A DNA stretch of 64,000 nucleotides from Escherichia coli (GTDB lineage: Bacteria > Pseudomonadota > Gammaproteobacteria > Enterobacterales > Enterobacteriaceae), in the NCBI RefSeq assembly GCF_013315695.1, contig NZ_CP054353.1. The stretch is one strand, 5' to 3'. Numbering within the stretch: position 1 is the stretch's first letter; each line of letters starts with the position of its first letter. Position numbers and translations under genes: made by a program. Shown here one piece after another: positions 1-56,221 of the stretch. The notes under the pieces are model-generated. The model saw only the letters and a program-made list of their open reading frames with translations, had not been told where the DNA came from and did not search any database.

Positions 1-1838
1 CACCAGATTTAACAGGCGTTGGCATGGAAGGCGGCGCAATGCTCAATGACGCCAGCCAGATCCCACACTATCGCACCATTACCGAAGCCGTACATCAGGA
101 AGGCGGCAAAATTGCCTTACAAATTTTGCATACCGGGCGCTACAGCTACCAACCGCATCTGGTCGCCCCCTCCGCATTGCAGGCCCCCATCAACCGTTTC
201 GTGCCCCATGAGTTAAGCCATGAAGAGATCCTGCAACTGATCGACAATTTCGCCCGCTGCGCGCAACTGGCGCGGGAGGCCGGATACGACGGCGTAGAAG
301 TGATGGGTTCCGAAGGGTATTTGATCAACGAGTTTCTGACGCTGCGCACCAACCAGCGTAGCGACCAGTGGGGCGGCGATTACCCTAACCGGATGCGGTT
401 TGCCGTCGAAGTAGTGCGTGCGGTGCGCGAGCGCGTCGGCAACGACTTCATTATTATCTACCGACTGTCGATGCTCGACCTGGTCGAAGGCGGCGGTACT
501 TTTGCCGAAACGGTAGAGCTGGCGCAGGCCATTGAAGCGGCGGGCGCGACCATTATCAACACCGGCATTGGCTGGCATGAAGCGCGGATTCCGACCATCG
601 CCACGCCAGTGCCGCGCGGCGCATTTAGCTGGGTCACACGCAAACTGAAAGGTCACGTCTCATTGCCGCTGGTGACCACCAACCGGATTAACGATCCGCA
701 GGTTGCCGACGATATTCTCTCGCGCGGTGATGCCGATATGGTATCGATGGCGCGACCGTTTCTTGCTGATGCGGAGCTGCTGTCAAAAGCGCAATCGGGG
801 CGAGCCGATGAGATCAACACCTGCATTGGCTGCAATCAGGCCTGTCTCGATCAGATCTTTGTCGGCAAGGTCACCTCGTGTCTGGTGAATCCTCGCGCCT
901 GCCACGAAACCAAAATGCCGATCCTTCCCGCCGTGCAGAAAAAAAATCTGGCGGTGGTCGGCGCAGGTCCGGCGGGGCTGGCGTTTGCCATCAATGCGGC
1001 GGCGCGTGGTCATCAGGTAACGTTGTTTGATGCACATAGCGAGATCGGCGGGCAGTTTAATATCGCCAAACAGATCCCCGGCAAAGAGGAATTTTACGAA
1101 ACATTGCGCTACTACCGCCGGATGATCGAAGTGACTGGCGTGACACTGAAACTTAATCACACCGTGACCGCAGATCAGTTAAAGGCGTTCGATGAAACGA
1201 TCCTCGCCAGTGGGATCGTACCGCGCATTCCGCCCATCGACGGGATCGATCATCCGAAGGTGTTGAGTTATCTCGACGTACTGCGCGACAAAGCGCCGGT
1301 GGGCAACAACGTCGCCATCGTCGGTTGTGGCGGGATTGGTTTTGATACGGCGATGTTTTTAAGTCAGCCGGGTGAGTCCACCAGCCAGAACATTGCCGAG
1401 TTCTGTAATGAGTGGGGAATCGACAGTAGCCTGCAACAGGCCGGAGGTTTGAGTCCGCAAGGCATGCAAATCCCCCGTAGCCCACGGCAGATTGTGATGC
1501 TCCAGCGCAAAGCCAGCAAACCAGGACAAGGGTTAGGCAAAACCACCGGCTGGATCCATCGCACCACCCTGCTCTCACGCGGCGTGAAAATGATCCCAGG
1601 CGTAAGTTACCAGAAGATCGACGATGACGGGCTGCATGTAGTGATCAACGGCGAACCGCAAATTTTGGCGGTAGATCATGTGGTGATCTGCGCGGGGCAG
1701 GAGCCAAACCGCACGCTGGCGCAACCGCTCATTGATAGCGGGAAAACCGTGCATTTAATTGGCGGCTGCGATGTGGCTATGGAGCTGGACGCACGACGGG
1801 CAATTGCTCAGGGAACACGGCTGGCGCTGGAGATTTAA
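1..1838 (+). CDS. fadH: 2,4-dienoyl-CoA reductase, 5'-truncated by window edge (ORF track 24..1838 is the in-frame internal Met)
   Basis: 604-aa ORF translation matches FadH from the ...GMEGGAMLNDASQ region to the C-terminus ...GTRLALEI; frame is open back to the window start. Confidence 0.9.
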   Translation, partial: PDLTGVGMEGGAMLNDASQIPHYRTITEAVHQEGGKIALQILHTGRYSYQPHLVAPSALQAPINRFVPHELSHEEILQLIDNFARCAQLAREAGYDGVEVMGSEGYLINEFLTLRTNQRSDQWGGDYPNRMRFAVEVVRAVRERVGNDFIIIYRLSMLDLVEGGGTFAETVELAQAIEAAGATIINTGIGWHEARIPTIATPVPRGAFSWVTRKLKGHVSLPLVTTNRINDPQVADDILSRGDADMVSMARPFLADAELLSKAQSGRADEINTCIGCNQACLDQIFVGKVTSCLVNPRACHETKMPILPAVQKKNLAVVGAGPAGLAFAINAAARGHQVTLFDAHSEIGGQFNIAKQIPGKEEFYETLRYYRRMIEVTGVTLKLNHTVTADQLKAFDETILASGIVPRIPPIDGIDHPKVLSYLDVLRDKAPVGNNVAIVGCGGIGFDTAMFLSQPGESTSQNIAEFCNEWGIDSSLQQAGGLSPQGMQIPRSPRQIVMLQRKASKPGQGLGKTTGWIHRTTLLSRGVKMIPGVSYQKIDDDGLHVVINGEPQILAVDHVVICAGQEPNRTLAQPLIDSGKTVHLIGGCDVAMELDARRAIAQGTRLALEI

Positions 1839-1853
1839 ATTGTGCATTGAAGT

Positions 1854-1918
1854 GCCGGATGCTGACGCGTCTTATCCGGCCCGGGGGTAACGTGCTAATC
1901 GTAGGCCGCATCCGGCAC
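1854..1918. repeat. REP (repetitive extragenic palindrome) pair downstream of fadH
   Basis: Inverted GCCGGATGC...GCATCCGGC motifs typical of E. coli REP/BIME elements. Confidence 0.6.
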
Positions 1919-1924
1919 GTCGCG

Positions 1925-2341
1925 TTAATCAATAAACAAGGCGGGAGAAATGCCGAATCGCGTTGCCAGTTTTTTAGCGTGTTCCAGCGTTAATTTCCTC
2001 TTCCCGCTCAAAACGCGTGACACCATCGATTTACTGCCAATTTCCGGCAGATCGGAAAGGGTTAAACCATATTGATCCATAAGGGTACGAATCACAGCTT
2101 TACCGCCAGGCATGGCTTGCGCCATGGCATTAAATTCAGCAAATTCGGGCGCTGATTCTTCCCACGCGGTTATTTTGGCACACGCCAGATCCAGCAAGGG
2201 GTTTTCAGGATCGTTGAGCAGCAGATGATCTACCAGTTCCAGCGCCTGGGTGTATTGTTCCTCGTTCTGAATACCCGCCAGAAAAGGTGCCACAGCAGTT
2301 AGCTTTTCTCCTGCTTGCAAGATGTCGGCAATCGCAATCAT
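1925..2341 (-). CDS. higA: HigA antitoxin (HTH-XRE family)
   Basis: 138-aa ORF; translation recognised as HigA (YgjM). Confidence 0.85.
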   Translation of the reverse strand: MIAIADILQAGEKLTAVAPFLAGIQNEEQYTQALELVDHLLLNDPENPLLDLACAKITAWEESAPEFAEFNAMAQAMPGGKAVIRTLMDQYGLTLSDLPEIGSKSMVSRVLSGKRKLTLEHAKKLATRFGISPALFID

Positions 2342-47551: not shown

Positions 47552-47993
47552 TTTATTTACCTCGGGTACTTATGCTGATTTTTATTATTATGGGGAAGGT
47601 GTTATTTATGAGTTTTATTTATGCCGTTACGGCAATGAACTCGGGAATTAGTATAATCAGCGCGAGAATAATAATCATTGTGCAAATGCTAATTTAATTA
47701 ATACTATTTAAATATTATTTTGAGCATATGCACATAAGGTTGCGCGCTAAAGCACAGATTTGCGCTTTACCTTGCCGGGCGGCACTGCAATCCCTGAAAT
47801 GATTGACATTGATCACATTTCTGCGTTTAAACTCCTGACATTCTTATTTCACCCAATGAAGTAATTTATTTTTAAATGAGACCAGGTCCTCATTTTAATA
47901 ACCCCTGGCTGGAGAATATTGCACAATGGCCAACATCGAAATCAGACAAGAAACGCCAACTGCGTTTTATATAAAAGTTCACGACACAGATAA

Positions 47994-48002
47994 TGTGGCA
48001 AT
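47994..48002. repeat. IS1 target-site duplication, left copy (TGTGGCAAT)
   Basis: Same 9-mer directly flanks both IS1 ends. Confidence 0.8.
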
Positions 48003-48017
48003 GGTAATGACTCCAAC

Positions 48018-48521
48018 TTATTGATAGTGTTTTATGTTCAGATAATGCCCGATGACTTTGTCATGCAGCTCCACCGATTTTGAGAACGACAGCGACTTCC
48101 GTCCCAGCCGTGCCAGGTGCTGCCTCAGATTCAGGTTATGCCGCTCAATTCGCTGCGTATATCGCTTGCTGATTACGTGCAGCTTTCCCTTCAGGCGGGA
48201 TTCATACAGCGGCCAGCCATCCGTCATCCATATCACCACGTCAAAGGGTGACAGCAGGCTCATAAGACGCCCCAGCGTCGCCATAGTGCGTTCACCGAAT
48301 ACGTGCGCAACAACCGTCTTCCGGAGCCTGTCATACGCGTAAAACAGCCAGCGCTGGCGCGATTTAGCCCCGACATAGCCCCACTGTTCGTCCATTTCCG
48401 CGCAGACGATGACGTCACTGCCCGGCTGTATGCGCGAGGTTACCGACTGCGGCCTGAGTTTTTTAAGTGACGTAAAATCGTGTTGAGGCCAACGCCCATA
48501 ATGCGGGCTGTTGCCCGGCAT
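48018..48521 (-). CDS. insB: IS1 transposase InsB frame (expressed as InsAB' by -1 frameshift)
   Basis: 167-aa ORF identical to the one in copy 2. Confidence 0.9.
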
Positions 48522-48715
48522 CCAACGCCATTCATGGCCATATCAATGATTTTCTGGTGCGTACCGGGTTGAGAAGCGGTGTAAGTGAACTGCAGTTGCC
48601 ATGTTTTACGGCAGTGAGAGCAGAGATAGCGCTGATGTCCGGCGGTGCTTTTGCCGTTACGCACCACCCCGTCAGTAGCTGAACAGGAGGGACAGCTGAT
48701 AGAAACAGAAGCCAC
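48440..48715 (-). CDS. insA: IS1 InsA (transposition inhibitor / N-terminal part of transposase)
   Basis: 91-aa [24 protein letters not shown]... with zinc-finger Cys pairs. Confidence 0.9.
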
Positions 48716-48770
48716 TGGAGCACCTCAAAAACACAATCATACACTAAATCAGTAAGTTGGCAGCATCACC

Positions 48771-48779
48771 TGTGGCAAT
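48771..48779. repeat. IS1 target-site duplication, right copy (TGTGGCAAT)
   Basis: Matches 47994..48002. Confidence 0.8.
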
Positions 48780-50297
48780 TATTGTTAATGATAATGGCCT
48801 GAAAGCAGGAACGCGTTTTCCGGATGAGCTGGAATTAATTGAACATATTCCCCAGGGGCATAAAGTCGCATTGCTGGACATTCCAGCTAATGGTGAAATT
48901 ATTCGTTATGGCGAAGTGATTGGTTACGCCGTGCGCGCAATCCCACGCGGAAGCTGGATCGACGAATCAATGGTTGTACTACCGGAAGCGCCGCCGTTAC
49001 ACACGCTGCCACTGGCAACCAAAGTCCCGGAACCCTTACCGCCGCTGGAAGGATACACCTTTGAGGGCTATCGCAATGCCGATGGCAGCGTGGGCACTAA
49101 AAACCTGCTCGGCATCACCACCAGCGTCCACTGTGTAGCAGGCGTGGTGGACTATGTAGTAAAAATCATTGAACGCGATCTGCTACCGAAATACCCGAAC
49201 GTCGATGGCGTGGTGGGGCTGAATCATTTGTACGGCTGTGGCGTGGCGATTAACGCACCGGCGGCAGTTGTGCCTATTCGTACCATCCACAATATTTCGC
49301 TGAACCCTAACTTTGGCGGCGAAGTAATGGTGATTGGTCTGGGTTGTGAAAAGTTGCAGCCTGAGCGCCTGCTGACTGGAACGGATGATGTGCAAGCTAT
49401 TCCAGTAGAAAGCGCCAGCATTGTCAGTTTGCAGGATGAAAAGCATGTCGGCTTTCAGTCCATGGTCGAGGATATTTTGCAGGTCGCCGAACGCCATTTG
49501 CACAAACTGAATCGACGGCAGCGAGAAACCTGTCCGGCTTCAGAACTGGTTGTTGGCATGCAGTGCGGTGGCAGCGATGCGTTTTCTGGCGTAACGGCAA
49601 ACCCGGCGGTTGGGTATGCGTCTGATCTACTGGTGCGCTGCGGCGCAACGGTGATGTTTTCAGAAGTCACGGAAGTGCGTGACGCGATCCATCTGCTGAC
49701 ACCACGCGCAGTGAACGAAGAGGTCGGCAAACGGCTGCTGGAGGAGATGGAGTGGTACGATAACTATCTCAATATGGGAAAAACCGACCGCAGCGCCAAC
49801 CCTTCGCCGGGCAACAAGAAAGGCGGTCTGGCAAATGTGGTGGAGAAAGCGCTCGGCTCCATTGCTAAATCGGGTAAAAGTGCAATTGTTGAAGTGCTGT
49901 CGCCCGGCCAACGCCCGACTAAACGCGGATTAATTTACGCCGCGACGCCAGCCAGCGATTTTGTCTGTGGCACGCAACAGGTGGCTTCGGGTATCACCGT
50001 GCAAGTGTTTACGACCGGTCGCGGTACGCCGTACGGCCTGATGGCGGTACCCGTCATTAAAATGGCAACCCGCACCGAGCTGGCGAACCGCTGGTTTGAT
50101 TTAATGGATATTAATGCGGGCACCATCGCTACCGGCGAAGAAACTATTGAAGAGGTGGGCTGGAAGTTGTTCCACTTTATTCTCGACGTCGCCAGCGGGA
50201 AGAAGAAAACCTTCTCAGATCAATGGGGACTGCATAACCAGCTGGCGGTGTTTAACCCAGCACCGGTGACCTGATTTCTTTTGGAACGTCCCTCGCA

Positions 50298-50330
50298 AAA
50301 CATGGCCTTAGTGCCATGTTTTTATTGTTT
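50298..50330 (+). terminator. Rho-independent terminator after garD
   Basis: AAAACATGGC-CTTAGT-GCCATGTTTT perfect hairpin followed by TATTGTTT. Confidence 0.7.
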
Positions 50331-50422
50331 AAAGTCCCCACGTCCATTAATAATGCATTTGCATTACCTTAGTTCAAGCTTATAATTTGAGCAGAAAACA
50401 GGCTGTAAAAGGACAGTGAATC

Positions 50423-50758
50423 ATGCCCGCTAATGCTCGCTCTCACGCTGTACTGACCACTGAATCAAAGGTCACGATACGCGGACAAACAACTATCCCC
50501 GCGCCAGTGCGTGAGGCCTTAAAACTGAAGCCAGGCCTGGACAGCATTCATTACGAAATTCTGCCTGGTGGGCAAGTATTTATGTGCCGACTGGGAGATG
50601 AACAGGAGGATCATACTATGAATGCATTTTTGCGTTTTCTGGATGCAGATATCCAGAACAACCCGCAAATAACTCGTCCATTCAACATTCAACAAGGAAA
50701 GAAACTTGTCGCAGGCATGGACGTCAACATTGATGATGAGATTGGCGACGACGAATAA
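50423..50758 (+). CDS. prlF: PrlF (SohA) antitoxin, AbrB/SpoVT-fold
   Basis: 111-aa ORF with acidic C-terminus; stop overlaps the yhaV start (ATGA). Confidence 0.9.
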   Translation: MPANARSHAVLTTESKVTIRGQTTIPAPVREALKLKPGLDSIHYEILPGGQVFMCRLGDEQEDHTMNAFLRFLDADIQNNPQITRPFNIQQGKKLVAGMDVNIDDEIGDDE

Positions 50759-51222
50759 TGGATTTTCCACAAAGGGTTAATGGTTGGGCGCTATATGCTC
50801 ATCCCTGTTTTCAGGAAACCTACGACGCTTTAGTTGCCGAAGTTGAGACATTAAAGGGAAAAGATCCTGAAAATTATCAGAGAAAAGCCGCCACAAAGTT
50901 ATTGGCGGTAGTCCATAAAGTGATTGAGGAGCATATCACGGTCAATCCATCATCACCGGCATTCCGTCATGGCAAGTCGTTAGGCTCTGGGAAAAATAAA
51001 GACTGGTCACGGGTAAAATTTGGTGCTGGTCGTTATCGTCTCTTCTTTCGTTATAGTGAAAAAGAGAAAGTCATCATTCTGGGATGGATGAACGATGAAA
51101 ACACTCTGCGCACCTACGGTAAAAAAACAGATGCCTATACCGTATTCAGCAAAATGTTAAAAAGAGGACATCCTCCTGCCGACTGGGAAACCCTCACCCG
51201 AGAGACAGAAGAAACCCATTGA
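50758..51222 (+). CDS. yhaV: YhaV toxin (ribosome-dependent RNase)
   Basis: 154-aa ORF translationally coupled to prlF. Confidence 0.9.
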   Translation: MDFPQRVNGWALYAHPCFQETYDALVAEVETLKGKDPENYQRKAATKLLAVVHKVIEEHITVNPSSPAFRHGKSLGSGKNKDWSRVKFGAGRYRLFFRYSEKEKVIILGWMNDENTLRTYGKKTDAYTVFSKMLKRGHPPADWETLTRETEETH

Positions 51223-51276
51223 TGGTGTTCACAATGCCCGCCGAACGCATTCGTGTTGACCAGCGGGCACCCTTTC

Positions 51277-52086
51277 TCACTCCCCGACCAGAATCACTTC
51301 AACCCCAGCCTTTCGCAGTCCTTCCAGACTATCCGCAGGAATGCCTTCATCAACAATGATCATGTCGATACGTTGAGTATCAATGATCTTATGTAAACTG
51401 GAACGGTTGAACTTACTGGAATCGGTGACCACGATGATCCGTTCCGCAACTTCGCACATCCGACGGTTTAAACGGGCTTCATCTTCATTATGCGTGCTGA
51501 CGCCGCGCTCCAGATCGATCGCATCTACGCCAAGAAACAGCATATCGAAGTGGTAATTTTGCAGCGATTGTTCAGCCTGATCGCCGTAAAAAGATTGCGA
51601 CTGACGGCGCAAATGCCCGCCGGTCATCAGCAGCTCAACGCCTTCCGCTTCCAGCAACGCATTAGCCACGTTCATACCGTTGGTCATCGCAATTACGTCA
51701 GTGTGCTTGCGCATCAGACGAGCAATCTCAAAAGTGGTGGTCCCGGAATCGAGGATTACCCGATGACCTGGCTGAATCAACTCAACGGCAGCTTTCGCAA
51801 CGCTGCGTTTCATTGCGGTGTTCAGCGCGCTTTTATCTTCCACTGATGGCTCGACTGACGGCGTCGTGCTATCGCAGATCAACGCGCCGCCATAGGCACG
51901 CACAGCGATCCCCTGCTTTTCCAGAAACGCCAGATCGTTGCGGATCGTCACAGTAGATACACCATACAACGCCGATAGATCATTAACTTGCACACTTCCT
52001 TGCTGGCGCAGGCGTTGAATAATCTGCTCTCGTCGCTCACTGGTGCCTGTCACTCGCTTCTCGCCTGAAGCGTCGGTATTACTCAT
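51277..52086 (-). CDS. agaR: DeoR-family repressor of the aga regulon
   Basis: 269-aa ORF with N-terminal HTH, divergent from kbaZ. Confidence 0.9.
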
Positions 52087-52334
52087 AGTAAGTCCTTTCG
52101 TAAAACTTTCGTTTCATTTCGTTTTGCCTATTAACGCCTTTCTATTAAGCAAATGCAAGCCCACCTTACCCATTGGCGCAAGCTACTCTCGTTTCAGTGG
52201 CTTTCATTATGTTTCTTTTGTGAATCAGATCAGAAAACCATTATCTTTCGTTTTATTTTTATCTCACCATGGCGCAGTATCAACTGAAACAAAACGAAAG
52301 ATTAATATCGCAGTAATCTGAACTGGAGAGGAAA

Positions 52335-53615
52335 GTGAAACATCTGACAGAAATGGTGAGACAGCACAAAGAGGGCAAAACAAATGGGATTTATGCCGTT
52401 TGTTCCGCACATCCGCTGGTGCTGGAAGCTGCAATCCGCTACGCCAGTGCAAACCAAACGCCGTTACTGATTGAAGCAACCTCCAATCAGGTGGACCAGT
52501 TCGGCGGTTATACCGGAATGACGCCCGCCGATTTTCGCGGCTTTGTTTGTCAGCTCGCCGACTCGTTGAATTTCCCACAGGATGCGTTGATTCTGGGTGG
52601 CGACCATCTGGGGCCAAACCGCTGGCAAAACCTGCCTGCCGCTCAGGCAATGGCCAATGCCGATGATTTGATTAAAAGCTACGTGGCGGCAGGATTCAAA
52701 AAAATTCACCTTGATTGCAGCATGTCCTGTCAGGACGATCCGATTCCCTTAACTGATGACATCGTGGCCGAACGCGCCGCTCGTCTGGCGAAAGTGGCGG
52801 AAGAAACCTGCCGTGAACATTTTGGCGCGGCCGATCTGGAGTATGTCATTGGTACCGAAGTACCGGTACCTGGCGGCGCGCATGAAACCTTAAGCGAGCT
52901 GGCGGTCACCACGCCGGATGCCGCCCGCGCCACGCTGGAAGCCCATCGTCACGCCTTTGAAAAGCAAGGTCTGAGTGCCATCTGGCCACGCATCATTGCT
53001 CTGGTGGTACAACCCGGCGTCGAATTCGATCACACCAACGTTATTGATTATCAGCCCGTCAAAGCGACCGCCTTAAGCCAGATGGTCGAAAACTACGAAA
53101 CGCTGATTTTCGAAGCGCACTCTACCGATTACCAAACGCCGCAATCGCTGCGCCAGCTGGTGATTGACCACTTTGCCATTCTGAAAGTTGGCCCGGCGCT
53201 GACCTTCGCCCTGCGTGAAGCTCTGTTCTCTCTGGCGGCGATTGAAGAAGAACTGGTACCAGCAAAAGCCTGTTCTGGTCTGCGTCAGGTGCTGGAAAAC
53301 GTGATGCTCGACCGCCCGGAATACTGGCAAAGCCACTACCACGGTGACGGCAACGCGCGTCGTCTGGCGCGTGGTTATAGCTACTCGGATCGCGTGCGCT
53401 ATTACTGGCCGGACAGCCAGATTGATGACGCTTTCGCTCATCTGGTTCGTAATCTGGCGGATTCACCAATTCCGCTACCGCTGATCAGCCAGTATTTGCC
53501 GCTGCAGTACGTGAAAGTTCGCTCCGGCGAGCTGCAGCCAACGCCACGGGAACTCATTATCAACCATATTCAGGACATCCTGGCGCAGTACCACACAGCC
53601 TGTGAAGGCCAATAA
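52335..53615 (+). CDS. kbaZ: Tagatose-1,6-bisphosphate aldolase accessory subunit
   Basis: 426-aa ORF, GTG start, recognised as KbaZ/AgaZ. Confidence 0.85.
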
Positions 53616-53637
53616 GCAAAACAAAGAGGAACACGCT

Positions 53638-54111
53638 ATGCCAAATATTGTTTTAAGTCGGATTGATGAACGCTTGATTCACGGTCAGGTCGGCGTTCAG
53701 TGGGTCGGATTTGCGGGGGCAAATCTGGTGCTGGTAGCCAACGACGAGGTTGCCGAAGATCCGGTACAACAAAACCTGATGGAAATGGTACTGGCAGAAG
53801 GGATCGCCGTACGTTTCTGGACGCTGCAAAAAGTCATCGACAACATTCATCGCGCCGCCGATCGACAGAAAATCCTGCTGGTTTGTAAAACACCTGCCGA
53901 TTTCCTGACGCTGGTGAAAGGTGGCGTTCCGGTGAATCGCATTAACGTTGGCAATATGCACTACGCCAATGGCAAGCAACAAATCGCCAAAACGGTTTCT
54001 GTGGATGCGGGTGATATCGCAGCATTTAACGACCTGAAAGCCGCTGGGGTGGAATGCTTCGTTCAGGGCGTCCCGACAGAGCCTGCTGTGGACCTCTTTA
54101 AATTACTTTGA
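53638..54111 (+). CDS. agaV: PTS N-acetylgalactosamine-specific IIB component
   Basis: ORF 53602..54111; start at MPNIVLSRIDERLIHGQVG gives 157 aa. Confidence 0.85.
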   Translation: MPNIVLSRIDERLIHGQVGVQWVGFAGANLVLVANDEVAEDPVQQNLMEMVLAEGIAVRFWTLQKVIDNIHRAADRQKILLVCKTPADFLTLVKGGVPVNRINVGNMHYANGKQQIAKTVSVDAGDIAAFNDLKAAGVECFVQGVPTEPAVDLFKLL

Positions 54112-54121
54112 GGGATTCATC

Positions 54122-54901
54122 ATGGAAATCAGTCTGTTGCAGGCATTCGCGTTGGGCATTATCGCCTTTATCGCTGGCCTGGATATGTTTAACGGCCTAA
54201 CCCATATGCACCGCCCGGTGGTCCTCGGCCCGTTGGTCGGACTGGTACTTGGCGATCTGCATACCGGTATTTTAACCGGCGGTACGCTGGAACTGGTGTG
54301 GATGGGGCTGGCCCCGCTGGCGGGCGCACAGCCGCCTAACGTGATTATCGGTACTATCGTCGGCACGGCGTTTGCCATTACTACTGGCGTGAAACCCGAT
54401 GTCGCGGTCGGTGTCGCCGTACCTTTCGCTGTCGCAGTACAGATGGGGATTACCTTCCTGTTCTCGGTGATGTCCGGCGTGATGTCCCGCTGCGACCGGA
54501 TGGCGGAGAACGCCGATACACGCGGCATTGAACGCGTGAACTATCTGGCACTGCTGGCACTCGGCACGTTCTATTTTCTCTGCGCTTTCCTGCCTATCTA
54601 CTTCGGCGCAGAACATGCAAAAACCATCATTGATGTCCTGCCGCAACGATTAATCGACGGCCTCGGCGTCGCGGGCGGCATCATGCCAGCAATCGGTTTT
54701 GCCGTGTTGCTGAAAATCATGATGAAAAACGTCTACATCCCCTACTTCATCCTGGGCTTTGTTGCCGCAGCCTGGCTCAAGTTACCGGTGTTGGCTATTG
54801 CTGCCGCTGCGCTGGCGATGGCGCTGATCGACTTGCTGCGTAAATCTCCTGAACCGACTCAACCTGCGGCACAGAAAGAGGAATTTGAAGATGGCATCTA
54901 A
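54122..54901 (+). CDS. agaW: PTS GalNAc-specific IIC component (full length)
   Basis: 259-aa polytopic ORF, uninterrupted. Confidence 0.85.
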   Translation: MEISLLQAFALGIIAFIAGLDMFNGLTHMHRPVVLGPLVGLVLGDLHTGILTGGTLELVWMGLAPLAGAQPPNVIIGTIVGTAFAITTGVKPDVAVGVAVPFAVAVQMGITFLFSVMSGVMSRCDRMAENADTRGIERVNYLALLALGTFYFLCAFLPIYFGAEHAKTIIDVLPQRLIDGLGVAGGIMPAIGFAVLLKIMMKNVYIPYFILGFVAAAWLKLPVLAIAAAALAMALIDLLRKSPEPTQPAAQKEEFEDGI

Positions 54902-55769
54902 TCAAACTACCCTGCCGAACGTCAGTGAAAACGAAGAAACACTGCTGACTGGCGTCAATGAAAACGTGTATGAAGATCAGAGTATTGGCGCGGAGCTGAC
55001 GAAAAAAGATATCAACCGCGTCGCCTGGCGTTCCATGCTGTTACAAGCGTCTTTTAACTACGAACGTATGCAGGCTTCCGGCTGGTTGTACGGTCTGCTG
55101 CCTGCTCTGAAAAAGATCCACACTAATAAACGCGACCTGGCGCGCGCCATGAAGGGGCATATGGGTTTCTTCAATACCCATCCGTTTCTGGTGACGTTTG
55201 TTATCGGCATTATCCTTGCGATGGAGCGTTCTAAGCAGGACGTTAACAGTATTCAGAGCACCAAAATTGCCGTCGGTGCGCCGCTCGGCGGGATTGGCGA
55301 TGCGATGTTCTGGCTAACGCTACTGCCGATTTGTGGCGGGATAGGCGCAAGCCTCGCGCTACAAAGCTCTATTCTTGGCGCAGTCGTCTTTATTGTGCTG
55401 TTCAACGTGGCGCATCTCGGTTTGCGTTTTGGTCTTGCACATTATGCTTACCGCATGGGCGTGGCGGCGATTCCACTCATTAAAGCAAATACCAAAAAAG
55501 TCGGCCATGCGGCATCTATCGTTGGGATGACGGTAATCGGCGCGCTGGTGGCAACCTATGTTCGTTTAAGCACCACGCTGGAAATCACAGCGGGCGACGC
55601 AGTGGTTAAGTTACAGGCTGATGTTATCGACAAACTGATGCCTGCCTTCTTACCACTGGTCTACACCCTGACCATGTTCTGGCTGGTACGCCGCGGCTGG
55701 AGTCCGCTGCGCCTGATTGCGATTACCGTGGTTCTCGGCATCGTCGGTAAATTCTGCCATTTCCTTTAA
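54891..55769 (+). CDS. agaE: PTS GalNAc-specific IID component
   Basis: ORF 54885..55769; ATG at 54891 (MASNQTTLPN) gives 292 aa. Confidence 0.85.
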   Translation: MASNQTTLPNVSENEETLLTGVNENVYEDQSIGAELTKKDINRVAWRSMLLQASFNYERMQASGWLYGLLPALKKIHTNKRDLARAMKGHMGFFNTHPFLVTFVIGIILAMERSKQDVNSIQSTKIAVGAPLGGIGDAMFWLTLLPICGGIGASLALQSSILGAVVFIVLFNVAHLGLRFGLAHYAYRMGVAAIPLIKANTKKVGHAASIVGMTVIGALVATYVRLSTTLEITAGDAVVKLQADVIDKLMPAFLPLVYTLTMFWLVRRGWSPLRLIAITVVLGIVGKFCHFL

Positions 55770-55786
55770 ATACAATGAGGTATTAG

Positions 55787-56221
55787 ATGTTAAGTATTAT
55801 TTTGACAGGGCATGGCGGATTTGCCAGCGGCATGGAAAAAGCAATGAAGCAAATTCTCGGTGAGCAATCGCAGTTTATCGCCATCGATTTTCCGGAAACC
55901 TCAAGCACCGCGCTGCTTACATCGCAGCTTGAAGAGGCCATCGTCCAACTGGATTGTGAAGACGGCATTGTTTTTCTGACGGATTTGCTGGGCGGCACGC
56001 CGTTTCGCGTAGCTTCAACGCTGGCGATGCAAAAACCGGGCTGTGAAGTGATCACCGGCACCAATTTGCAACTGCTACTGGAGATGGTGCTGGAGCGCGA
56101 AGGGTTAAGCGGTGAAGAGTTCCGTGTGCAGGCGCTGGAGTGTGGACACCGTGGGCTGACCAGTCTGGTGGACGAGTTAGGCCGCTGCCATGAAGAATGT
56201 CCGGTCGAGGAAGGAATATGA
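55787..56221 (+). CDS. agaF: PTS GalNAc-specific IIA component
   Basis: 144-aa ORF recognised as AgaF. Confidence 0.85.
   Translation: MLSIILTGHGGFASGMEKAMKQILGEQSQFIAIDFPETSSTALLTSQLEEAIVQLDCEDGIVFLTDLLGGTPFRVASTLAMQKPGCEVITGTNLQLLLEMVLEREGLSGEEFRVQALECGHRGLTSLVDELGRCHEECPVEEGI

Follow-up and report, generated by a model that had tools for sequence, protein, structure and literature searches.

Two IS1 events at garD and agaB of Escherichia coli and the TTG-initiated fusion reading frames at the IRL end of the element

The stretch of Escherichia coli DNA analyzed here (64,000 nucleotides of contig NZ_CP054353.1, assembly GCF_013315695.1; hereafter the window) carries two copies of the insertion sequence IS1, and at the same end of each copy a TTG triplet opens a frame that continues into the adjacent gene, garD in one case and agaB in the other. 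A sequence-only reading of the locus had raised the possibility that N-terminally truncated GarD and AgaB are expressed from these IS1 ends, and the question is whether the fusion frames are expression devices or result from where the element happened to be placed. We consider it highly probable that the locus records two ordinary, recent and independent IS1 knock-outs, the TTG fusion ORFs being geometric by-products of them. IS1 copy 1 transposed into codons 24-26 of garD, duplicating 9 bp; copy 2 landed at first upstream of agaB, in the state that isolate AF3 has kept, and an IS1-anchored adjacent deletion, probably intramolecular, then removed the beginning of this gene. The outward IRL sequence supplies a TTG, and with it a fusion ORF, wherever the downstream gene lies in the corresponding frame.

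The observation from which the question arose is exact. The outward terminus of both copies reads ...AAG TTG GCA GCA TCA CC, and the sequence AAGTTGGCAGCATCACC is present in the window exactly twice, at 48754..48770 and 60617..60633, both times on the plus strand; the ORFs 48757..50274 and 60620..60844 both follow from it in frame, so that the recurrence formerly placed at 60620..60650 corresponds to the second copy of this sequence, with its ORF starting from 60620. The terminus had been called the right end of IS1, which is correct in window coordinates only: since insA and insB lie on the minus strand, the end carrying the TTG adjoins insA and is, by IS1 convention, IRL.

As to the element itself, copy 1 occupies 48003..48770 and copy 2 59866..60633, both on the minus strand and both of 768 bp, with two nucleotide differences between them and the change A13V in InsA of copy 2. 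The left end of copy 1 in the window is IRR and the right one IRL. Its assignment to IS1 is based on the size and the terminal repeats, which are imperfectly inverted (18 of the first 23 and 21 of the first 30 positions match), on the tandem insA (48440..48715, minus strand, 91 aa) and insB frame (48018..48521, minus strand, 167 aa) with the A6C motif of the -1 frameshift (AAAAAAC, 48458..48464), and on the 9-bp target-site duplication. In the relatives of this strain the elements are annotated in RefSeq as 'IS1-like element IS1A family transposase, programmed frameshift'; the one in E. coli MSB1_4I is identical and the one in AF3 differs by 1 nt.

Copy 1 is a recent, ordinary simple insertion at codons 24-26 of garD, alike in all of substance to the simple insertions of the IS1 family. 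Both terminal sequences were found, and the 9-bp target sequence TGTGGCAAT flanks the element on the left (47994..48002) and on the right (48771..48779); in MSB1_4I, where garD is intact, as it also is in AF3, the two window flanks overlap by exactly these 9 bp. The gene had been described as truncated, like agaB. This holds for agaB, which has lost sequence from the IS end onward, and not for garD, which is interrupted, with its first codons remaining upstream and TGTGGCAAT on both sides. The residual 5' part of garD (47926..48024, plus strand) retains the native ATG and its Shine-Dalgarno sequence and encodes residues 1-25 followed by seven codons of IS1, with the stop inside IRR. The fusion ORF on the other side (48757..50274, plus strand, TTG start, 505 aa) encodes MAASP from IRL and then GarD residues 24-523. 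Since 500 of the 523 residues and all three Pfam domains (SAF, at profile positions 3-63, GD_AH_second and GD_AH_C) are kept, such a protein, if made, could be active. The N-terminal domain of GarD comprises residues 1-96, and its structure was solved separately (3LAZ); an AlphaFold2 single-sequence model of this domain, which concerned whether residues 1-23 hold a strand of SAF, gave a pLDDT of 38, too low for use. The net effect of the insertion is most likely the loss of galactarate dehydratase.

The second copy has a more complicated history. A target duplication is absent here; to the left the element borders on the spacer between kbaY and agaB, and to the right agaB begins at codon 89, the codon of P89 being rebuilt with the CC of the IS end. 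In AF3 (L003 of the comparison) the same IS1 insertion, located 39 bp upstream of agaB, is present with the same left junction, the target duplication AAAAATTAT and an intact agaB, and the left flank of copy 2 is identical to that of AF3. The window lacks L003 positions 14864..15168, and this missing stretch begins directly after the IS end at 14863, so that comparison with AF3 places the scar of a 305-bp deletion at 60633..60634. The lost sequence consists of the 39-bp agaB leader, with the second copy of AAAAATTAT in it, and of 266 nt coding for AgaB; copy 2 lacks a target duplication because the deletion removed this second copy. Read from the aligned sequences, the agaB event is an IS1 insertion followed by an IS1-anchored adjacent deletion that included agaB codons 1-88. 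As in known IS1-mediated adjacent deletions, one IS end is exact, the deletion starts from the terminal base, the direct repeat next to it has gone and the opposite junction has not changed; here, in addition, the state before the deletion is preserved in a near-identical genome, that of AF3. According to PMC9330008, with reference to Turlan and Chandler (1995), no direct repeats flank IS1 after a deletion of this type. In the window, however, the mechanism is read from the scar, and with a 2-bp CC microhomology at the far end a deletion made without transposase is possible. The garD junction being a simple insertion with duplication and the agaB junction an insertion plus an adjacent deletion, the two are independent, as had been assumed.

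The fusion ORF at agaB (60620..60844, plus strand, TTG start) encodes 74 aa, MAASPQTVRKLVEGG..., that is, MAAS followed by AgaB residues 89-158, and the remnant covers only positions 81-148 of the 148 of the Pfam profile PTSIIB_sorb. The deleted residues 1-88 include the histidine motif NRLVH17GQV, whose His17 we take to be the phosphorylation site. As the N-terminal half with this motif is gone, the fragment cannot be a IIB phosphocarrier, and the net effect is most likely the loss of the galactosamine PTS IIB subunit. The agaB junction of MSB1_4I is identical to that of the window, and the agaB remnant there is a RefSeq pseudogene with the coordinates of the TTG ORF and the PGAP note 'incomplete; missing N-terminus'. 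In a collection of 15 billion proteins the exact GarD fusion has no entry, and the AgaB fusion occurs once, as the product of an ORF-based caller on a 504-bp ENA contig; these look-ups have no bearing on expression.

Is the TTG of the IS1 end likely to initiate translation? E. coli can initiate without a Shine-Dalgarno sequence, and TTG is a genuine if weak start codon. Among the 33 annotated genes nearby, none uses it. A Shine-Dalgarno-like element, for which the sequence-only reading had pointed to the terminal nucleotides of IS1, was sought in the last 20 nt of the element and none was found: the pairing of the 20 nt 5' of the TTG with the anti-Shine-Dalgarno sequence amounts to -0.2 kcal/mol, with a spacing of zero; the 33 annotated starts have a median of -5.8 and the native start of garD has -6.4 kcal/mol, and of random NTG triplets 77% pair at least as strongly. 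In the modelled read-through RNA the IRR pairs with the IRL, and the TTG together with the 8 nt before it has P(unpaired)=0.00, this long-range pairing being a thermodynamic prediction that ignores both co-transcriptional folding and ribosomes on the 32-codon garD stub, a stub that covers part of IRR. We infer that the TTG is unlikely to be a translation start, since it is a weak codon without Shine-Dalgarno pairing; since it lies inside a -35 hexamer, so that a transcript from a hybrid promoter would begin about 35 nt downstream of it; since it is part of a repeat bound by InsA and the transposase; and since a transcript from upstream would have to traverse some 730 nt of IS1 RNA that is antisense and untranslated, where Rho-dependent polarity classically acts, and would have its TTG, as predicted, paired to IRR. 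In either orientation, IS1 classically exerts polarity through Rho. A literature search for IS1 polarity and for translational fusions from IS1 ends found nothing relevant.

The frame shared by the two junctions does not require a special explanation either. Only one of the three frames that run out of IS1 here contains a canonical start after its last stop, namely the TTG, four codons after the TAA at 48745, and the estimate that two junctions agree by coincidence in about one case of nine stands, with one start-bearing frame of three per junction and the orientation given. In a census of 101 unique IS1 IRL junctions from species-representative genomes, a number that can exclude only a large effect, ORFs of at least 100 codons leaving IRL were counted 8 times in the TTG frame and 8 and 8 times in the other two, and those of at least 50 codons 14, 17 and 13 times in the three frames; an excess of the TTG frame, such as selection would leave, was thus absent across these junctions. 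At the agaC::IS1 junction of other strains the gene does not lie in the TTG frame. These data agree with the caution, expressed already in the sequence-only reading, that the shared frame may be a coincidence. Because the last 14 bp of IRL read TTG GCA GCA TCA CC, any gene that lies downstream in the same direction and in the TTG frame (one case in three) will be listed as a TTG fusion. A fusion ORF of at least 100 codons arises at about 8% of the junctions, or about one in twelve, and E. coli genomes have a median of about 10 IS1-matching places each, so that about one long fusion per genome is to be expected.

The first half of the hexamer TTGGCA (48757..48762 and 60620..60625), situated 8 bp from the IS tip, is the TTG itself, and this hexamer has a known transcriptional role. 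The passages of PMC8764528 and PMC4287979 that cite Prentki (1986) describe an outward -35 box in the inverted repeat of IS1, and those of PMC8764528, PMC9330008 and PMC4287979 refer to hybrid promoters experimentally established elsewhere; such promoters (bla, acrEF, afaA, pgaA) employ this IRL end with its TTGGCA. At the garD junction the hexamer is followed, after a 17-bp spacer, by TATTGT in garD, which matches the -10 consensus at 4 of 6 positions, and the resulting site (48757..48785, plus strand) scores 9 of 12 in a consensus scan, with an implied transcript start near 48792, downstream of the TTG. No -10 hexamer was found in the scan at 16-18 bp from TTGGCA at the agaB deletion junction; in the AF3 ancestor a -10-like hexamer, TATTAT, is present before agaB at 16 bp. 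While the hybrid promoters of the Prentki type sit upstream of intact genes, the garD candidate is inside a disrupted coding sequence and its 9/12 match is weak. In the opposite direction, an inward promoter-like site (48736..48763, minus strand, CTGCCA-16-TATGAT) overlaps IRL and corresponds to PIS1/PIRL, which drives insA; PIS1 is known to overlap IRL partly, and the inverted repeats to be bound by InsA/InsAB' (PMC12428005). One more outward promoter, a full one slightly inside the same IRL end, was predicted from sequence only in PMC4287979, and our check of strain 55989 showed that the end facing pgaA, the case of that paper, is indeed IRL. Such a promoter, if real, could yield transcripts containing the TTG; our scan of the window IS1 gave nothing of at least 8/12 in the predicted region, and no outward promoter reached 8/12 in the final ~270 bp of the element, the stretch scanned at that threshold.

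At the garD junction TTGGCA and TATTGT might form a working sigma-70 promoter that transcribes the garD remnant and the downstream prlF-yhaV from about 48792. Besides the experimental precedents and the 9/12 site, the fact that only 7 of 104 IRL junctions have a -10 as good at the right spacing argues for this possibility, in which the protein would start not at the IS1 TTG but internally, for instance at TTG 48871 (residue 57), with a moderate Shine-Dalgarno-like pairing of -5.7 kcal/mol, though at a spacing of 11 nt, or at ATG 48970 (residue 90). Yet GarD beginning at residue 57 or 90 would lack most of its N-terminal domain, InsA and transposase bound to IRL would compete with the polymerase at the -35 box, the region as a whole contains four such sites where 1.7 are expected in shuffles, and the agaB junction has no such site; we therefore regard a functional hybrid promoter at garD as improbable. 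Still less probable is it that RNA running out of or across IS1 is translated from the TTG into MAASP-GarD(24-523), with residual dehydratase activity, and into the fragment MAAS-AgaB(89-158). Both ORFs are open and in frame, the GarD fusion has all of its Pfam domains, the promoter claimed in PMC4287979 would lie near this end, and, as a plus-strand ORF inside IS1 (48645..48755) stops 1 nt before the TTG, termination-reinitiation is formally conceivable; against this are set the missing Shine-Dalgarno pairing, the position of the TTG within the -35 hexamer, its predicted full pairing in the read-through RNA, the scan without an upstream promoter, the polarity of IS1, the even distribution of frames among the junctions and, for AgaB, the loss of the NRLVHGQV half. 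The proposed IS1-driven expression of GarD and AgaB from the TTG is accordingly disfavoured, on sequence and RNA prediction. The most far-reaching variant, in which the IS1 end may turn the galactarate-inducible garD into an IS-driven gene controlled by InsA and not by CdaR and giving an N-terminally remodelled, active GarD, appears to us extremely improbable; this GarD would come from low-level transcripts that start inside IRL or at the hybrid promoter, and would be MAASP-GarD(24-523) or a form with an internal start.

A question of another kind is why the insertions persist. Inactivation of garD and of the galactosamine PTS could be of advantage to this lineage, or IS1 could have a hot spot in the aga region; the fusion ORFs are then irrelevant, so that this explanation is compatible with two ordinary knock-outs. 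IS1 has indeed come to aga repeatedly and independently: AF3 has the intergenic insertion, the window and MSB1_4I have its deletion derivative, and a separate insertion occurs in agaC; in 23 genomes an IS1 lies no more than a few hundred bp from this part of agaB, and several strains have IS1 in or beside garD at other positions. A widespread kbaY-agaB intergenic IS1, apparent from 274 multi-piece matches, was dropped from consideration, as both of the two genomes inspected among these 274 with IS1 nearby had the different insertion, inside agaC, which itself adds to the recurrence at aga. But this recurrence may reflect only the preference of IS1 for AT-rich targets, the kbaY-agaB spacer being very AT-rich, and the junctions of the window give no sign of spread: of 5426 complete E. 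coli genomes none has the garD junction as a contiguous match and one has the agaB junction, and both together occur in no complete RefSeq E. coli genome, the closest being MSB1_4I and AF3. Selection for the loss of function, or a hot spot, is thus possible but rather unlikely.

In general, both IS1 events at the locus are of the textbook type, and it is of little importance in itself that one E. coli lineage has probably lost galactarate dehydratase and the galactosamine PTS IIB subunit through them. Should the GarD fusion, against the evidence, be produced and prove active, one would have a minor curiosity, a gene rescued by an IS end, and if garD were in fact IS-driven, the IS end would supply the start signals of both transcription and translation to the gene it had disrupted. 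For the annotation of genomes, long TTG fusion ORFs at the IRL of IS1 should be recorded as remnants of pseudogenes and not as new proteins, similarly to other spuriously extended ORFs at IS junctions and as RefSeq does for the agaB remnant of MSB1_4I. Any effect of the IS end on expression would be transcriptional, through a hybrid promoter, rather than translational, the TTG being part of the -35 box.

The two 768-bp IS1 copies, one within garD (48003..48770) and one at agaB (59866..60633), differ at two positions and share one orientation, with insA and insB on the minus strand (in copy 1, insA occupies 48440..48715, the insB frame 48018..48521 and the A6C frameshift motif 48458..48464). 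The terminus called the right end in the sequence-only reading is therefore right in window coordinates only; it is the left inverted repeat of IS1 (IRL), beside the insA start. Its outward sequence terminates in ...TAA ATC AGT AAG TTG GCA GCA TCA CC, and ORF listing bears out that in both cases the TTG opens a plus-strand ORF in frame with the adjacent gene: 48757..50274 (505 aa, MAASP plus GarD residues 24-523) and 60620..60844 (74 aa, MAAS plus AgaB residues 89-158). We consider it very probable that these fusion ORFs are geometric by-products of two ordinary IS1 knock-outs, and presume that they are not expressed. As to the copies themselves, copy 2 carries a G>A change at element position 676 (window 60541) relative to copy 1 and the copy of isolate AF3, which turns InsA Ala13 into Val (SCSATDG to SCSVTDG); copy 1 has a difference of its own at position 733, in the region of the inward promoter (CACCATCAT to CACAATCAT).

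The nearest complete genomes are those of E. coli MSB1_4I and AF3; over the 11,095 bp separating the IS1 copies, both show a rounded identity of 100.0%. The garD IS1 is flanked on both sides by the 9-bp duplication TGTGGCAAT, and in MSB1_4I, where garD is intact, the flanks overlap by exactly these 9 bp; garD was interrupted by simple insertion. Upstream of IS1 it keeps its native promoter, its Shine-Dalgarno (SD) sequence and its first 25 codons, as a 32-codon stub (47926..48024) terminating within the right inverted repeat (IRR). In the window, no target duplication borders the agaB copy. In AF3 the left IS1 junction is identical, and the element has the duplication AAAAATTAT and is followed after 39 bp by an intact agaB; missing by comparison from both the window and MSB1_4I are 305 bp that start at the exact IS terminus (39 bp of leader and 266 nt of agaB). 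According to PMC9330008, IS1-mediated adjacent deletion leaves the element without direct repeats, and the 305-bp loss matches the scar expected of it. The junctions are thus independent, as had been assumed, and were reached by different routes, simple insertion at garD versus insertion plus probable adjacent deletion at agaB. Both are rare: among 5426 complete E. coli genomes, a contiguous match was found in one for the agaB deletion junction and in none for that of garD.

The shared frame had been ascribed to possible coincidence, with a chance of about 1 in 9; the figure is right, and the coincidence reading is supported. Of the three outward frames at the IRL end, that of the TTG alone still offers a canonical start once its last stop has been passed, which puts the probability of a fusion at 1/3 for each same-direction junction and at 1/9 for a pair. 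Taking one genome for each bacterial species, we collected every exact match to the terminal 29 nt of IRL (108 stretches, reduced to 101 junctions by removal of duplicate flanks) and measured the open length of each outward frame. ORFs of at least 100 codons numbered 8 in the TTG frame and 8 in each of the other two, those of at least 50 codons 14, 17 and 13, so that these 101 unique junctions show no TTG-frame enrichment. With a median of ~10 IS1-matching places in E. coli genomes and a long TTG fusion at ~8% of junctions, geometry alone predicts roughly one ORF of this kind per genome. At an independent insertion in the same locus, within agaC, the gene frame differs from the TTG frame. This insertion, present in both genomes inspected among the 274 with IS1 nearby (WCHEC005237 and AREA_486; 1312..2079 in each locus, target duplication TCCGCCCGA), has the same orientation and interrupts agaC after ~99 bp, which corresponds to a point near 60980 in the window; it seems to explain the IS1 found close to agaB in most of these 274 complete genomes. 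Along with the intergenic insertion and several that lie near garD in other strains, it suggests repeated IS1 hits on the gar-aga region.

Nor does the TTG resemble a translation start. No SD element precedes it: the 20 nt upstream pair with the 16S 3' end (anti-SD) at -0.2 kcal/mol at best (no spacing), versus a median of -5.8 kcal/mol for 33 annotated neighbourhood starts (garD ATG -6.4, agaC ATG -6.9 kcal/mol), and 77% of ATG/GTG/TTG triplets in the region equal or beat it. None of the 33 neighbourhood genes starts with TTG. Whichever way it points, IS1 exerts strong polarity via Rho, and read-through from the garD or agaS promoters would have to traverse ~730 nt of IS1 RNA, antisense and untranslated. 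When such an RNA was modelled thermodynamically, IRR paired with IRL, the unpaired probability of the TTG and the eight nucleotides before it being zero. IRL is also bound by InsA and transposase (PMC12428005). A 36-codon GTG ORF antisense to insA (48645..48755, +), with no evident SD, stops at a TAA (48753..48755) that a single nucleotide separates from the TTG, and is the only conceivable termination-reinitiation route to it. The read-through path further contains, antisense to insA and ~110 nt short of the IRL end, a terminator-like hairpin with a T-rich tail (CGCTGATGTCCGGCG GTGCTTTTGC; 48630..48654 and 60493..60517, +), scoring no more than shuffles give.

The TTG is, moreover, the first half of TTGGCA, the outward -35-like box of the inverted repeat. 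PMC8764528, PMC9330008 and PMC4287979, citing Prentki et al. (1986), describe hybrid promoters formed by this box and a suitably spaced -10 in the target. Weak activity of this kind at garD is the main alternative worth an experiment, improbable as we hold it to be: a consensus scan found TTGGCA-17-TATTGT (48757..48785, 9/12, at the expected spacing) there and no such site at the agaB junction. Its transcript, however, would begin near 48792, beyond the TTG and also beyond the GTG (48772) that follows it in frame, and would still bypass the TTG; for these three bases the promoter and start-codon readings are mutually exclusive. A full outward promoter has been asserted for the IRL end (confirmed as such in strain 55989) from sequence inspection, without transcript data (PMC4287979); our relaxed scan found none of at least 8/12 within the last ~270 bp of IS1. 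With no SD, a TTG paired in the modelled RNA and lying inside a -35 box, and no outward promoter of at least 8/12 in the scanned ~270 bp, the proposed IS1-driven expression of truncated GarD and AgaB is not supported. In the pre-deletion state of AF3 (NZ_OZ547117, locus positions 14850..14877; compare window 60633/60634), the promoter-like site TTGGCA-16-TATTAT (10/12) is better than that at garD, only 3 of 104 surveyed IRL junctions having as good a -10, and agaBCDI expression might there be independent of AgaR.

As for the products, the AgaB remnant covers only positions 81-148 of the 148 of the PTSIIB_sorb profile and is annotated by RefSeq as a pseudogene in MSB1_4I. Residues 1-88 are gone, and with them the NRLVHGQV motif; its N-terminal histidine is the phosphorylation site in sorbose-family IIB proteins, and the remnant cannot act as a IIB phosphocarrier, whatever its expression. 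In the GarD fusion, 500 of 523 residues are left and all three Pfam domains are still recognised, the SAF profile losing its first two positions only. Both the whole enzyme (6U7L) and its N-terminal domain 1-96 (3LAZ) have known structures; the predicted model of this domain (pLDDT 38) is too poor to judge residues 1-23. The GarD fusion is the only live part of the expression idea, requiring transcription and initiation that lack sequence support. All these features fit well-described IS1 biology.

The prlF-yhaV toxin-antitoxin pair (50423..50758 and downstream) lies immediately 3' of the disrupted garD, and any transcription out of the IS1 end could also change its expression. The IS1 copies form direct repeats (48003..60633) around the garD remnant, prlF-yhaV, agaR, kbaZ, agaVWEF, nagA/agaA, agaS and kbaY, a composite geometry resembling that of Tn9. 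Homologous recombination between them would remove the entire 11,095-bp block, and its mobilisation by the pair is conceivable in principle.
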